64,000 bases of DNA from Chloroflexota bacterium (lineage in GTDB: Bacteria; Chloroflexota; Dehalococcoidia; UBA2979), in assembly GCA_009839925.1 (NCBI GenBank), contig VXOS01000053.1:2447-66446 (forward strand), given 5' to 3'. The notes under the pieces are model-generated. The model was not told the origin of the DNA, did not search any database, and saw only the letters and a program-made list of their open reading frames with translations. Within the stretch, counting starts at the first letter, position 1, and each line of letters opens with the position of its first letter. The translations under genes were made by a program, and so were the position numbers. Of the stretch, positions 10,821-14,975 are shown piece after piece.

Positions 10821-12461
10821 TCACGAGGACGCAGCCTGCGAGGCCGCCTCCCGCGCGGCGCCCGCGCGGTACTCCAGCGCCGCACCGACGAAATCGCGGA
10901 ACAGCGGCTGCGGGCGCAGCGGCCGCGAGGTGAACTCCGGATGGAACTGCGTCCCCAGCATCCAGGGATGATCGCGCAGCTCCATGATCTCGACCAGCTC
11001 GCCGTTCGGCGAGCAGCCGGAGGCGATCAGGCCGTGCTGCTCCAGCACCGGCAGCAGCGCGTTGTTCACCTCGTAGCGGTGGCGATGCCGCTCGCGCACC
11101 TGCTCCCGCCCGTAGGCGGCGGCGGCGTGCGTACCCTCGACCAGCCGGCACTCGAAGCCGCCGAGGCGCATCGTCCCGCCGTAGTCCTCGATGCCGCGCT
11201 GCTCCGAAAGCAGCGAGATCACGGGGAACGGGGTCCGCGGATCGGCCTCCGTCGTGTTGGCCTCCGGCATTCCGGCCACGTTGCGGGCGAACTCGCAGAC
11301 CATCATCTGCAGCCCGAGGCAGACACCGAAGTAGGGGATGCGCTGCTCACGCGCGTACGTCGCGGCGGAGATCTTGCCCTCCAGCCCGCGGTCGCCAAAA
11401 CCCGGACAGACGAGGATGCCGTCGACCTTGCCGATCGCCTCCTCCGGCGGGCGGGTGTCGAGCTCCTCCGAATGCACCCAGTGGAAGCTCATGCGCGCGC
11501 GATGGAAGACCGCGGCGTGGATCAGCGCCTCGCGGATCGAGAGGTAGGCGTCGTGCAGCTCCACGTACTTGCCGACCACGGCGATGCGCACCTCGGAGTC
11601 GGGGTTGCGCAGCCGCTGGACGAACTCACGCCAGTCGTCCAGATCGGAGGAGGGCGTCTCGATGCCGATGCGCCTCAGCACCAGGTCGGCGAGCCCGCAC
11701 GCCTCGAGGACCAGCGGGATCTCGTAGATCGAGTCGGCCGTCTGCAGCGGGATGACCGCCTCGCGCTCGACGTTACAGAAGAGGCCGATCTTCTCGCGCA
11801 GCGCCTCGGGCGCCGGCTGGTCGGCGCGAGCGATGATCACGTCCGGCTGGATGCCGAACGAGCGCAACTCGCGCACGGAGTGCTGCGTCGGCTTGGTCTT
11901 CAGCTCGCGCGTCGAGCCGATGTAGGGCAGCAGCGTGACGTGAATCGAAGCCGTCGCGTCCACGCCGAGCGTGTGCCGCATCTGCCCGATCGCCTCGATG
12001 AACGGCTGGCTCTCGATGTCGCCGATGGTGCCGCCGACCTCGACGATCACGACTTGGGCGTCCAGCGCGCTTCCCGCCTCGCGGATGCGCCGCCGGATCT
12101 CGTTGGTGACGTGCGGGATCTGCTGGATGGTGCCGCCGAGGAAATCGCCGTGCCGTTCCTTGCGGATCACCTCCTCGTAGATCTGGCCCGAGGAGGTGGA
12201 GTTGGCCTGCGTGAAGTTCTCGTCGAGGAAGCGCTCGTAGTGTCCGAGGTCCAGATCGGTCTCGGCGCCGTCGTCGGTGACGAAGACCTCGCCGTGCTGA
12301 TAGGGCGACATCGTGCCGGGATCGACGTTGATGTAGGGGTCGAGTTTGAGGACGGAGACGCGGAGGCCGCGGGCGCGCAGGATGCGGCCGAGCGAGGCGG
12401 TGACGATCCCCTTGCCGACGGAGCTCACGACGCCGCCCGTGACGAAGATGTACTTCGGCAT
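10821..12461 (-). CDS. pyrG: CTP synthase
   Basis: MPKYIFVTGGVVSSVGKGI N-terminus and a glutamine amidotransferase C-terminus (GVCLGLQ). The ORF-track start at 12488 adds 9 non-conserved residues; the canonical start is preferred. Confidence 0.9.
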   Translation of the reverse strand: MPKYIFVTGGVVSSVGKGIVTASLGRILRARGLRVSVLKLDPYINVDPGTMSPYQHGEVFVTDDGAETDLDLGHYERFLDENFTQANSTSSGQIYEEVIRKERHGDFLGGTIQQIPHVTNEIRRRIREAGSALDAQVVIVEVGGTIGDIESQPFIEAIGQMRHTLGVDATASIHVTLLPYIGSTRELKTKPTQHSVRELRSFGIQPDVIIARADQPAPEALREKIGLFCNVEREAVIPLQTADSIYEIPLVLEACGLADLVLRRIGIETPSSDLDDWREFVQRLRNPDSEVRIAVVGKYVELHDAYLSIREALIHAAVFHRARMSFHWVHSEELDTRPPEEAIGKVDGILVCPGFGDRGLEGKISAATYAREQRIPYFGVCLGLQMMVCEFARNVAGMPEANTTEADPRTPFPVISLLSEQRGIEDYGGTMRLGGFECRLVEGTHAAAAYGREQVRERHRHRYEVNNALLPVLEQHGLIASGCSPNGELVEIMELRDHPWMLGTQFHPEFTSRPLRPQPLFRDFVGAALEYRAGAAREAASQAASS

Positions 12462-12557
12462 CAGCCCTCGGATGGTTGGGGAGGACACGGACCATATTCC
12501 GCGCGCGGCGCGAAGGTGTCAACGATCGCGAGGTGTGGGAGCGTCCCAATGCACTCC

Positions 12558-12948
12558 CTACGGATCGCCCGTGTAGTCCTCAATCTCGCCCAGGGCCGGT
12601 ACGCGCCCGATGCCCCAGAGGATCACGTCACGACTTCGCTCGAAATCAGCATGGAACTCGAACCAGACCATGCACTCCGGCACGTTCGGAAATCCGGGCT
12701 CTGTGAGGAGCAACCCCTCACGGATCGGTCCGTCACCTGCAACAACCCTGATCCGTGGGTGCTCCAGGCCCTCCCGGTACGCCTCGATCTCGCGATCGAG
12801 GACGTGCTTGATGCCGCGGTCGAGCAGATGTCCCCGCGCCACGGCTGCCGGGGCCACCGAGCCAAGTTGCTCCGAAAACTCGGGCGTTACCTCGAAGTGG
12901 TGTGTCCAGCGGCCAGGCGGCTGCTCACGAGGAAGATCTCTTGGCACG
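12558..12948 (-). CDS. Uncharacterised ~130-aa protein translationally coupled to the Panacea-domain gene; candidate toxin (PanT-like) partner
   Basis: In-frame GTG (VPRDLPREQPPGRWTHHFEV...) overlaps the stop of the upstream Panacea gene by about 20 nt. Codons are visibly less GC-rich than neighbours (e.g. aga gat ctt cct, gag ttt tcg gag caa ctt). No recognisable family by eye. Confidence 0.35.
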
Positions 12949-13551
12949 TCGTTCCGCCAGCGCCCGCTGCCAGGCCGCGACCTCGGTCGGCGTGGGCTGG
13001 CGGTCCGAGATGTACACGGTTTCGTAGGGGATCTCCTCGCGGTCGCGCGCGAGCCTCCACCCCGCCTCGAGGTGCGACAGCGCGCTGACTTGCGACGCAT
13101 TGAGCTCCCGGAGGTCGGCGAGCACCGCATCTACGATGGCAAGTTCGGCGGGATCGAGGACCTCGCTTGCTTCCGACCCTCGCAGTGGGCGGATCACCTT
13201 CTGCGGGCGATTGAAGTAGCGCCGCTCGAAGCGTTCGAGTTCCCCCCCCGCCTCCATTGAGCGCAGGGCTGGAAGCAGTTCCCGGGGGGCAGGTCCTCTG
13301 TCCAGGCGCTGGTACGTAGCCCCGGTGATCGACTCGCCGAGCATTCCGAACGCCTTGAAGTCGCTGAAGTACAGGATCTTGTTGAGCTTCGTGGCGCCGA
13401 AGCGCGGATCCTCCTCCGACTCCTCGGCCACATAGAGAACGAGTTCCCGAAACTTACTGCTGTCGAAGGTCCTGGCCAGTGCCTCCTCCGTTATCGTGAC
13501 TGTGTGCCACCAACACGACCAGCCTCTTGCACGGCTAACCCGTAAACACAC
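12925..13551 (-). CDS. Panacea-domain (DUF4065, SocA/GepA-like) protein; putative PanA-type antitoxin
   Basis: ELVLYVAEESEEDPRFGATKLNKILYFSDFKAFGMLGESITGATY matches the DUF4065/Panacea core (KLxKLLYF...). GTG start at complement of 13549-13551; no internal Met until residue ~70. Confidence 0.6.
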   Translation of the reverse strand: MCLRVSRARGWSCWWHTVTITEEALARTFDSSKFRELVLYVAEESEEDPRFGATKLNKILYFSDFKAFGMLGESITGATYQRLDRGPAPRELLPALRSMEAGGELERFERRYFNRPQKVIRPLRGSEASEVLDPAELAIVDAVLADLRELNASQVSALSHLEAGWRLARDREEIPYETVYISDRQPTPTEVAAWQRALAERRAKRSSS

Positions 13552-13561
13552 TCTAGCCGTG
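13530..13561. promoter_or_regulatory. 8-bp inverted repeat (cacggcta-N16-tagccgtg) abutting the Panacea gene start; candidate autoregulatory operator
   Basis: Read directly from the sequence. The arm nearest the gene lies 3 nt upstream of the GTG start; the other arm lies inside the first codons. Confidence 0.3.
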
Positions 13562-13691
13562 TCTCACCACAACTGCCAAGGGCGGATCTCACGCAACCAT
13601 CGGCATTTCTTGCCGATGCTGTACGCCCGCCGTAGGCTGAGCCGCGTGCGTTCGAGGGCCCCCGAGGCCCCGCGACTAGAGAGGCGCACAG

Positions 13692-14975
13692 ATGCCACCC
13701 GCCGAGGCGATCCAGCCGCAGATCAGCACGCTCCCCAACGGCCTGCGCGTCATCACCACCCCGGTCCCCACTGCCCAGAGCGCCAGCGTCGCCTTCTTCG
13801 TCGGCGTCGGCTCGCGCGACGAGGACCCGCGCACCAACGGCGTCTCCCACTACCTGGAGCACATGCTCTTCAAAGGCACCTCGACGCGCCCCACCGCGCC
13901 GGAGATCAGCGAGGCCATCGAGGGCGCCGGCGGCGCCCTCAACGCCTACACGACGCGCGAGCTGACCTGCTACTGGAACAACATGCCCTTCGAGCGCGCC
14001 AGCACCGGCGTCGAGGTGCTGGCCGACATGATCCAGCGCTCCCTGCTCGACCAGGAGGAACTCGACCGCGAGCGCACCGTCGTCCAGCAGGAGATCCGTC
14101 GCGGCCACGACGCCCCGGCCTCCCGCGCCGCCGAGCTGATGGTGCGCGCCGTCTACGGCGACCAGCCGATCGGCTGGCCCGTCACCGGCTCGATCGAGAC
14201 GGTCGAGGGGCTGGCTCGCGACGACTTCGTTTCGCACGTCGAGCGCTTTTACGGCGCGGAGAATACGGTGCTGTCCGTCGCCGGCAACGTCACGCACGAG
14301 TGGGTGACCGAGGCCGCGGCGGAGTGGTTCGACGGCCTGCGCGACGGGGCCGCCCGCACACCTTCGGCCGCCGAGCACGGCCTCCCCGACGAGCCGATCA
14401 TCATCGAGGAGCGGGAGATCGAGCAGACCAACATCCGCCTCGCCGTGCAGGGCCCGGCGCGCCGCGACCCGGACCGTTACGCGCTGGCGCTGCTGCACAC
14501 CGTGCTCGGCCGCGGCATGTCCTCCCGGCTCTTCCAGGAGGTGCGCGAGCGCCGAGGGCTCGCCTACTCCGTCGCCTCGGGCGTCGCGCAGCACAAGGAC
14601 ATCGGCTCCTTCATCGTCAGCGCGGGCGTCTCGCGCGATGAGCAGGAGGAGGCGCTGCAGGTGATCGTCGGCGAGCTGCAGCGCGCCGCGAACGAGCCCG
14701 TGAGCGACGAGGAGTTGCAGCGCGCAAAGGACTTCGCCGCCGGCACCTTCCGGCTCTCGATGGAGACGCCGATGGCGCTTGGCCAGCACTTCGGCTCGCA
14801 GCTGCTGCAGGACGGCGAGATCGAGCTGCCGGGCGACACCGTCGAGCGCCTCCGTGCGGTCGAGGCCGGCGACATGCAGGCCGTCGCGCAGCGGCTGTTC
14901 GGCGGCGAATACGCGCTCGCCGTCGTTGGCCCCTCGGCCTCGGCGGATCGCCTGAGCGCGATCCTCGCTGCCTGA
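13692..14975 (+). CDS. M16 family zinc peptidase (insulinase/PqqL-like)
   Basis: Inverted zinc motif HYLEHMLFKG (HxxEH) and the two-domain M16 architecture. Confidence 0.8.
   Translation: MPPAEAIQPQISTLPNGLRVITTPVPTAQSASVAFFVGVGSRDEDPRTNGVSHYLEHMLFKGTSTRPTAPEISEAIEGAGGALNAYTTRELTCYWNNMPFERASTGVEVLADMIQRSLLDQEELDRERTVVQQEIRRGHDAPASRAAELMVRAVYGDQPIGWPVTGSIETVEGLARDDFVSHVERFYGAENTVLSVAGNVTHEWVTEAAAEWFDGLRDGAARTPSAAEHGLPDEPIIIEEREIEQTNIRLAVQGPARRDPDRYALALLHTVLGRGMSSRLFQEVRERRGLAYSVASGVAQHKDIGSFIVSAGVSRDEQEEALQVIVGELQRAANEPVSDEELQRAKDFAAGTFRLSMETPMALGQHFGSQLLQDGEIELPGDTVERLRAVEAGDMQAVAQRLFGGEYALAVVGPSASADRLSAILAA

Follow-up and report, generated by a model that had tools for sequence, protein, structure and literature searches.

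A Panacea-domain gene and its overlapping small acidic partner beside pyrG in Dehalococcoidia: a probable toxin-antitoxin module of the PanAT type

Panacea antitoxins (PanA) pair with dozens of toxin types (PanT) in the two-gene systems known as PanAT. Among the partners already catalogued for Panacea antitoxins are ParE and clusters resembling RelE/HigB2/YoeB (PMC8832971), and RelE/ParE are among the commonest folds of the NetFlax network. Panacea neutralises either directly or through appended C-terminal helices: the Phd-C element of the C. doosanense PanA neutralises Doc, and in B. choladocola Panacea contacts the unstructured N-terminus of PanT (PMC10440598). Here we describe a candidate pair of this kind in a stretch of 64,000 nucleotides (nt), called the window below, from contig VXOS01000053.1 (positions 2,447 to 66,446; assembly GCA_009839925.1) of a Chloroflexota bacterium of the class Dehalococcoidia. 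Between pyrG and a divergent M16 peptidase gene, a panA gene is overlapped at its 3' end by a gene for a small acidic protein, the partner. In our judgement, the two genes probably constitute a chromosomally fixed PanAT-type (type II-like) toxin-antitoxin module. Its features, in window positions, are the following.

12925-13479, minus strand: panA, 184 amino acids (aa), probable CTG start; Panacea core and a basic C-terminal helix (residues 164-183).
12558-12947, minus strand: partner gene (candidate PanT), 129 aa, GTG start.
13482-13489, minus strand: Shine-Dalgarno-like sequence of panA, GGAGGAGG, 2 bases 5' of the CTG start.
12953-12958, minus strand: weak Shine-Dalgarno-like box of the partner gene, GGCGGA, read from the sequence, within the panA coding sequence and 5 nt before the GTG.
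13574-13579, minus strand: -35 hexamer TTGGCA of the predicted promoter of panA and the partner gene, conserved in 8/8 syntenic loci aligned.
13550-13555, minus strand: -10 hexamer TAGAGT, after an 18-nt spacer; it contains the GTG at 13551, and its TAGAG core occurs in 9/9 promoter regions scanned (eight syntenic loci and the window).

The upstream gene had been recognised by eye as Panacea/DUF4065, and the profile search confirmed it: PanA matches Pfam PF13274 (SocA_Panacea) at E 9.7e-15 with 55.9 bits against a cut-off of 25.7, over profile positions 1-112 of 113. The NCBIfam SocA equivalog NF047745 gave 11.8 bits, far under its cut-off of 190. The AlphaFold2 model of PanA has a predicted local distance difference test score (pLDDT) of 88, and the C-terminal tail of the protein is basic while the partner is acidic. 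For the in-silico identification of PanAT pairs, Kurata et al. 2022 (PMC8832971) considered the presence of a Panacea domain, a same-strand neighbour gene at a distance of 100 nt at most, and the gene neighbourhood. The window's pair combines a Panacea domain above the Pfam threshold with this same-strand spacing and a conserved pairing. With respect to operons longer than three genes, which the neighbourhood should not indicate, pyrG and a DUF2269 gene always follow on the same strand within the clade, as is expected because of vertical descent, and other lineages have rplI, rpoB, a racemase gene or a GNAT gene instead.

Judged from the gene order across genomes, this pairing is the strongest evidence for a module. 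In all syntenic loci, as well as in L011-L015, L016-L018, L097 and L098/L099, the Panacea gene overlaps the partner gene or sits at most 1 nt away from it. Six distant homologues of the partner were looked up; upstream DNA was readable for five, and all five (5/5) had an overlapping or abutting Panacea gene upstream. The distant pairs stand in unrelated surroundings, for instance beside a racemase gene, beside HPPK/Trm112 with purF or next to a convergent GNAT gene. The Panacea gene and its small neighbour, which the original prediction had proposed as a pair, are thus found tightly coupled, far beyond this lineage and in unrelated contexts.

The partner belongs to a small family. Homologues were found at 62-99% identity, the family comprises 18 proteins at E <= 0.001 in a profile search of 1.84 billion representatives, and the GTDB species representatives that carry it are all metagenome-assembled genomes (MAGs) of Dehalococcoidia or Chloroflexi. 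The PanA subfamily, in comparison, counts 435 proteins at E <= 1e-10. A metagenome scan with the alignment of this subfamily gave 80 loci, three of which (L016-L018) carry the window's partner family. Downstream of PanA relatives, 53 of the 69 callable open reading frames (ORFs) encode instead proteins of ~90-105 aa that we call family B, and rescanning of mis-called frames added further members. Family B has no match in Pfam, NCBIfam or PHROGs. Aligned by hhalign to the window's partner family, it gave 95% probability and E 2.9e-8 over 86 columns; a separate run of the same comparison gave 89% and E 2.3e-6, and reversed or column-shuffled controls reached at most 0.9%. According to these profile alignments, the window's partner family makes up a rare branch within a larger family, itself unannotated, whose genes follow close PanA relatives. 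The tails of PanA proteins paired with the window's partner family differ from those of PanA proteins paired with family B.

The distribution of family B, together with the same PanA subfamily, is patchy: most loci lie on short environmental contigs, some on viral ones. Of six PanA relatives detected on viral contigs, three are directly followed by a family-B gene, as seen in the IMG/VR loci L102, L103 and L105 (28-44% identity). The wider module therefore travels on phage or prophage DNA, though no member of the window's own partner family turned up among viral contigs. Family B might be linked to the published PanT cluster T1, which includes a Chloroflexi entry; the homologue search made for this comparison returned only metagenome and MAG proteins.

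The gene models were derived from the comparison of the syntenic loci. The ORF list of the minus strand contains a 208-aa ORF (12925-13551) and a 190-aa ORF (12558-13130) with an internal GTG at 12947. The ~130-aa reading frame of the original prediction, whose GTG was said to overlap the Panacea stop by about 20 nt, was retained as a 129-aa gene with a 23-nt overlap, its upper coordinate being corrected from 12948 to 12947. The overlap is also 23 nt in most syntenic loci and 11 nt in L003, and in all homologous pairs examined the two genes overlap by up to 38 nt or are at most 1 nt apart. The start codon of the partner gene is kept in 10/10 sequences (the window and nine syntenic loci), as GTG except for an ATG in L004; it is preceded by gcggaacgac, and the gcggaacgacGTG stretch at the start is conserved in most syntenic loci. 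Since this conserved start and the conservation of the frame account for the region, the 190-aa ORF 12558-13130 and an antisense 216-aa ORF (12610-13260) were rejected as non-genes. In comparisons with six relatives, the partner gene has a ratio of nonsynonymous to synonymous substitution rates (dN/dS) of 0.12-0.23, and panA one of 0.05-0.14. On this comparative basis both genes are real and the partner is under purifying selection.

The GGCGGA box and the overlapping layout suggest that translation of the partner is coupled to that of panA. An imperfect 19-nt inverted repeat (79% complementary; 12949-13008, minus strand) at the 3' end of panA covers the weak Shine-Dalgarno-like box of the partner gene. 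The RNA fold of the panA/partner junction is no better than that of shuffled sequences (z -1.5), and a coupling hairpin was consequently dropped as evidence.

The start of panA itself had to be moved. The GTG at 13551, which opens the 208-aa ORF, was rejected on three grounds: it falls inside the -10 hexamer of the predicted promoter, L007 has a stop codon 4 codons 5' of the conserved N-terminus, and L004 has no ATG, GTG or TTG before this N-terminus. The aligned first codon is CTG in seven syntenic sequences (13477-13479 in the window, and L003, L004, L005, L007, L008 and L009). L001 has TTG at this place, and the distant homologues L011-L014 have ATG or GTG. A purine-rich GGAGG/GGGGG/GGAGA box lies 2-7 nt before the aligned start in all syntenic loci, and the resulting 184-aa PanA matches the 183-184 aa of the homologues having canonical starts. 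L008 and L009 have an additional ATG five codons 5' of the aligned start. The CTG at 13479 is very probably the start of panA, a comparative inference and not a proof. Public calls of the panA orthologues range from 139 to 208 aa. They are mis-started or truncated because the conserved start is a CTG, which gene callers cannot use, a practical point to keep in mind for panA in these genomes.

The partner was described in the original prediction as outside any recognisable toxin family, and this holds at the level of profiles: the 129-aa protein has zero matches in Pfam, NCBIfam or PADLOC at E up to 1 and none in PHROGs, and the profile of its family has none among PDB sequences. An AlphaFold2 model built on a 9-sequence alignment (mean pLDDT 77.6, predicted template modelling score 0.71) shows the order beta, alpha, alpha and four beta strands (E17-20, H22-31, H35-58, E66-69, E75-81, E92-99, E107-115), with disordered termini (residues 1-12 and 120-129, pLDDT <50). 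This is the RelE/ParE layout of an N-terminal strand, a two-helix hairpin and an antiparallel sheet of three to four strands, with a long helix 2 carrying an insertion in the partner family. Structural matches of the model include YoeB, YafQ, PrpT, other ParE chains and a RelE-like CdiA-CT; ParE-type proteins (PfiT, ParE, PrpT) score nearly at the top and have the highest sequence identity, 16-20%. Foldseek of the model against the PDB gave nothing significant, with a best E of 0.18 and the first toxin at rank 23. For family B, the only near-full-length matches of a PDB profile search were weak ones to RelE toxins (E 0.6-1). A RelE/ParE-like fold of the partner is moderately supported by the model, and not certain.

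The partner is unusual in its composition. It has 23 acidic and 14 basic residues and an isoelectric point (pI) of 5.07, and the pI is between 4.3 and 5.1 in 15/15 family members computed. Two segments are conserved at its ends, the N-terminal LPREQPxGxWxHxFEV, disordered in the model, and an acidic C-terminal tail, PxLDExEDY(S/T)xDP.

If the pair is a PanAT-type module, it may work as follows. One sigma-70-type promoter (-35 TTGGCA, -10 TAGAGT) would give a bicistronic mRNA, on which a good Shine-Dalgarno sequence followed by a weak CTG would start the translation of panA; as the partner GTG overlaps the panA stop by 23 nt, translation of the partner would be coupled to that of panA. A promoter scan of 12300-13800 found 1 sigma-70-like site where 0.1 is expected (10x chance). 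The module would be weakly expressed. PanA, with its Panacea core and basic C-terminal helix, would bind the small acidic partner and hold it inactive, and the released RelE/ParE-fold partner would inhibit growth; its action would more likely be ParE-like, by binding to a protein target, than a ribosome-dependent cleavage of mRNA. Two contacts are candidates by analogy: the basic C-terminal helix of PanA, comparable to the Phd-C helices of the C. doosanense PanA, and the disordered LPREQPxGxWxHxFEV segment of the partner, like the Panacea-bound unstructured N-terminus of PanT in B. choladocola.

The history of the locus bears on how this module is to be understood. The order M16 peptidase (divergent), panA, partner, pyrG, DUF2269 is found in 10/10 related loci (L001-L009 and L016), these being the Dehalococcoidia/Chloroflexi relatives recovered, with no systematic search made for empty M16-pyrG junctions. 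The suggestion that the pair might be an indel is not borne out by this comparison, which places it at the same position in every one of these loci. The 10 syntenic loci include five GTDB species representatives, and at least nine further loci have other neighbourhoods. Identities to the window in the related loci are:

pyrG: 77-97%.
M16 peptidase: 73-94%.
panA: 72-98%.
Partner: 62-94%.

The pairwise identity matrices of the pair and of its flanks are congruent (Pearson 0.75-0.89).

The AT-richer codon use noticed at first sight was confirmed by the G+C content at third codon positions (GC3). In the window, panA has a GC3 of 0.78 and the partner gene one of 0.73, versus 0.94 for pyrG, 0.95 for the M16 peptidase gene and 0.96 for DUF2269 (long-ORF mean of the window 0.89, sd 0.055). 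These are the lowest values among the window's real genes; the overall GC of the pair dips only mildly (0.61-0.69 versus ~0.70). The same offset is seen in all relatives, with 0.67-0.82 for the pair versus 0.93-0.97 for the flanks. Against the deepest relatives, the synonymous divergence (dS) of the pair is ~1.1-1.7 (saturated) versus 0.45-0.60 for the flanks, two- to four-fold higher. Since GC3 is low in every relative although dS is saturated, the offset points to a maintained equilibrium and not to an unameliorated foreign signature: synonymous sites of the pair would have fully turned over while GC3 stayed near 0.7-0.8, as a gene-specific equilibrium. One possible cause, for example, is that a module of low expression experiences little selection for codons ending in G or C. 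Conservation in all related genomes together with normal composition had been named as what would speak against a foreign islet; conservation was found (10/10 loci) and normal composition was not, GC3 being low in every relative. Taken with the congruent identities, the pair is old and vertically inherited, not newly acquired. More generally, genes of a very GC-rich genome can keep a low GC3 as a stable equilibrium of their own and not as a trace of recent transfer, which calls for caution in composition-based island calls.

Several points weigh against a PanAT-type toxin-antitoxin module. The partner has a net charge of ~ -9 and lacks both an equivalent of RelE R61 and a basic C-terminus. The pair shows strict synteny and co-divergence with its housekeeping flanks down to 62% identity, a vertical fixation not usually seen in selfish, mobile toxin-antitoxin modules and in keeping with domestication. 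The CTG start would give a poorly translated antitoxin, which is odd for a neutraliser. In published screens, 10 further predicted pairs were non-toxic in E. coli, against 16 validated (PMC10440598).

The main rival explanation is that of domestication, in which a PanAT-derived, non-toxic module now serves a host function and is kept by ordinary purifying selection, not by addiction. It could combine a Panacea sensor with a small acidic adaptor modulating a protein partner, or have a role in the expression of the adjacent core operon. We see this as a real but clearly minor possibility. In its favour are the strict synteny in 10/10 related loci and the co-divergence with pyrG and M16 given above, the acidity of a partner without the RelE catalytic set, the absence of the partner family among the viral contigs found, and the sensory role that Ernits et al. 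propose for Panacea (PMC10440598). Partner-family members also lie directly upstream of core genes elsewhere, on the same strand: of rplI(-dnaB) in L010 (51-437) and L097 (5530-5874), and of rpoB-rpoC in L098/L099 (5524-5889). This placement echoes that beside pyrG, and a PanA gene is present wherever upstream DNA exists. The downstream neighbours nevertheless vary by lineage (pyrG, rplI, rpoB, a racemase gene, a convergent GNAT gene), so that no single host pathway emerges, and family B is patchy on short environmental and sometimes viral contigs, as would be expected if it formed mobile modules for defence or of the toxin-antitoxin kind. A low GC3 combined with weak start codons suits a low-expression accessory module.

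The junction with pyrG gives arguments on both sides. The following site belongs to its context, not to the module.

12494-12522, minus strand: promoter-like TTGACA-17 nt-GAATAT, read from the sequence, in the 96-nt spacer before pyrG.

It is kept in 7/10 sequences (the window, L003 and L005-L009), and scores under the threshold of the promoter scan. L001/L002 and L004 lack the site, and there the partner gene abuts pyrG; in L001 and L004 the two genes abut or overlap and pyrG has no promoter to itself, an arrangement that favours domestication, as does the spacer between partner and pyrG, in which no terminator-like site was found; against it, most syntenic loci keep this separate, conserved promoter-like site for pyrG. 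The real start of pyrG is the ATG at 12461 (MPKYIF...), not the listed GTG at 12488. A CCUC/GAGG hairpin in 12459-12522 (minus strand) could mask its ribosome-binding site; the RNA fold of the pyrG leader is no better than shuffles (z -1.4), and a structured leader was dropped as evidence on this ground. An Rfam search of 12200-13800 gave no match.

In L098, a fragment of an M16 peptidase gene (1-355), 76% identical to that of the window, lies 4.6 kb upstream of the rpoB-linked pair, whose partner and PanA are 39% and 59% identical to those of the window's pair. The history of the module at this depth may include relocation or paralogy.

Another explanation, which we hold to be improbable, looks to the tails. 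The partner would belong to an uncharacterised superfamily of Panacea-paired acidic RelE/ParE-fold proteins that act by docking an acidic-aromatic tail onto a host protein and not by RNA cleavage. Some family-B proteins (L050, L059, L069, L088, L085) end in EDDIPF, DDDIPF, ESDFPF or WEDIDF, and many others have acidic tails containing an aromatic residue. The EDDIPF/DDDIPF/ESDFPF tip is the C-terminal tip motif of bacterial SSB, as in E. coli. By this analogy, the DDIPF-type tips of family B suggest that these proteins imitate the SSB tail and disturb the replication or repair proteins to which that tail binds. A literature search for this tip motif together with toxins returned nothing relevant. 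If the docking idea were true, the Dehalococcoidia branch, with its PxLDExEDYxxDP tail, would have been long retained vertically beside pyrG, rplI-dnaB and rpoBC, and the depressed GC3 and CTG-initiated antitoxin would point to a domesticated low-level checkpoint, not to a selfish addiction module.

That the partner is a classical ribosome-dependent mRNA endonuclease of the RelE, HigB or YoeB kind, neutralised by PanA, appears quite improbable. The catalytic residues of E. coli RelE are K52, K54, R61, R81 and Y87, and characterised RelE-type ribonucleases are basic proteins. The profile of family B aligns over its whole length to E. coli RelE, with an Arg kept at the R61 position, which supports such a relationship. 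The window's partner family lacks both characteristics: its pI is 4.3-5.1 in every member, the R61-equivalent position is Met or Leu (PECMVWF), and the segment with the R81 and Y87 equivalents is replaced by the acidic tail, without a basic C-terminal segment. The register of this alignment to E. coli RelE is approximate, and the aligned coordinates agree with the 4fxe_D match. The near-equal scores and higher identities of the ParE-type PfiT, ParE and PrpT also argue against a RelE assignment. Given the acidity of the partner and the absence of the RelE catalytic residues from it, a ribosome-dependent ribonuclease mechanism is unlikely on these alignments, and, if the partner is toxic, a ParE-like mode of protein binding is the better guess.

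Finally, horizontal acquisition of a recent, compositionally foreign islet between pyrG and the M16 peptidase gene, as first proposed, can practically be set aside, for although the GC3 of the pair is the lowest of the window's real genes and related PanA-partner modules occur on viral contigs, it is contradicted by the same junction in 10/10 related loci recovered, spanning pyrG identities of 77-97%, by distance matrices congruent with the flanks, by a GC3 depression in every lineage despite saturated dS (~1.7 in the deepest pairs), and by the immediate flanking genes, among which no integrase or tRNA gene is apparent (tRNAs and direct repeats were not specifically searched).

Returning to the probable PanAT-type module, its regulation had been tentatively attributed to an inverted repeat abutting the start codon.

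13554-13561 and 13530-13537, no strand assigned: 8-bp inverted repeat CACGGCTA/TAGCCGTG, 16-nt spacer, possible operator.

The repeat exists, and because panA very probably starts at CTG 13479 it would not abut the start codon; its arms flank the -10 box together with the likely start of transcription near 13543. An operator at this place is possible and weakly supported: the repeat is identical only in L005, the closest relative, and with five perfect 8-bp inverted repeats in this 1.35-kb stretch it may have arisen by chance. At the same place, L007 and L001 have 6-bp dyads of other sequence (CACCCG/CGGGTG and CTAGAG/CTCTAG, respectively), and five further loci have no perfect dyad of at least 6 bp. 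DNA binding by the PanA core is conceivable; Ernits et al. argue against an autoregulatory role of Panacea itself (PMC10440598). A second 8-bp inverted repeat, CATCGGCA/TGCCGATG (13598-13618, 5-nt spacer), sits in the interval separating the M16 promoter from the divergent panA promoter and is partly conserved in close relatives (tcggcaag.aa.tgccga).

As a PanAT-type module, the window's pair adds a sequence-orphan branch of a known fold to the partners of Panacea antitoxins, a branch so far known only from uncultured Chloroflexi and environmental assemblies. It also shows with unusual clarity how a toxin-antitoxin-like pair can be passed down vertically, together with adjacent housekeeping genes, over a divergence at the level of genera or families, and is therefore a useful test case for whether long-resident toxin-antitoxin modules remain toxic or become domesticated.

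Among the described systems compared with the pair is DarTG. PanA, 17% identical to the C-terminal domain of DarG (PDB 7yk3), lacks a macrodomain, and there is no DarT-like ADP-ribosyltransferase. The type VI system SocAB of Caulobacter, the founding Panacea system, has an antitoxin with the same Pfam domain (SocA_Panacea). PanA, however, misses the SocA equivalog cut-off, its partner is RelE/ParE-like in predicted fold and not SocB-like, and there is no evidence for a ClpXP-adaptor action of PanA. The type II systems ParDE and RelBE resemble the pair in the predicted fold and size of the toxin candidate, in a two-gene operon with the antitoxin first, and probably in an antitoxin that contacts the toxin through a C-terminal helix. 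They differ from it in that the antitoxin here is a Panacea protein and not of the ribbon-helix-helix, Phd/YefM or helix-turn-helix (HTH) type, and in that the toxin candidate is acidic, lacks the RelE catalytic residues and has no ParE/RelE match at the level of sequence profiles.

The PanAT systems (PMC8832971, PMC10440598) are the closest. Shared with them are a Panacea protein without an N-terminal HTH, the antitoxin gene in first position, overlapping genes, a pairing conserved across species and contexts, a partner with a predicted RelE/ParE-type fold, and a C-terminal helical appendage of PanA comparable to the Phd-C element by which the C. doosanense PanA neutralises Doc. The closest PanT clusters, compared by description and not by sequence, are ParE, or T14/T28 with their HHpred matches to HigB2/YoeB/ParE/RelE (PMC8832971). 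In contrast to described PanAT systems, the window's partner family has no sequence profile, is acidic with an acidic tail and carries an insertion in its long helix 2. The module, fixed beside core genes by vertical inheritance, is not patchy and mobile, and its panA is probably CTG-started. The unusual traits of the pair are thus its acidity and tail motif, its CTG start, its persistent GC3 offset and its strict vertical inheritance. In this comparison it is probably a sequence-orphan member of PanAT, and neither a new toxin type nor a fresh islet.

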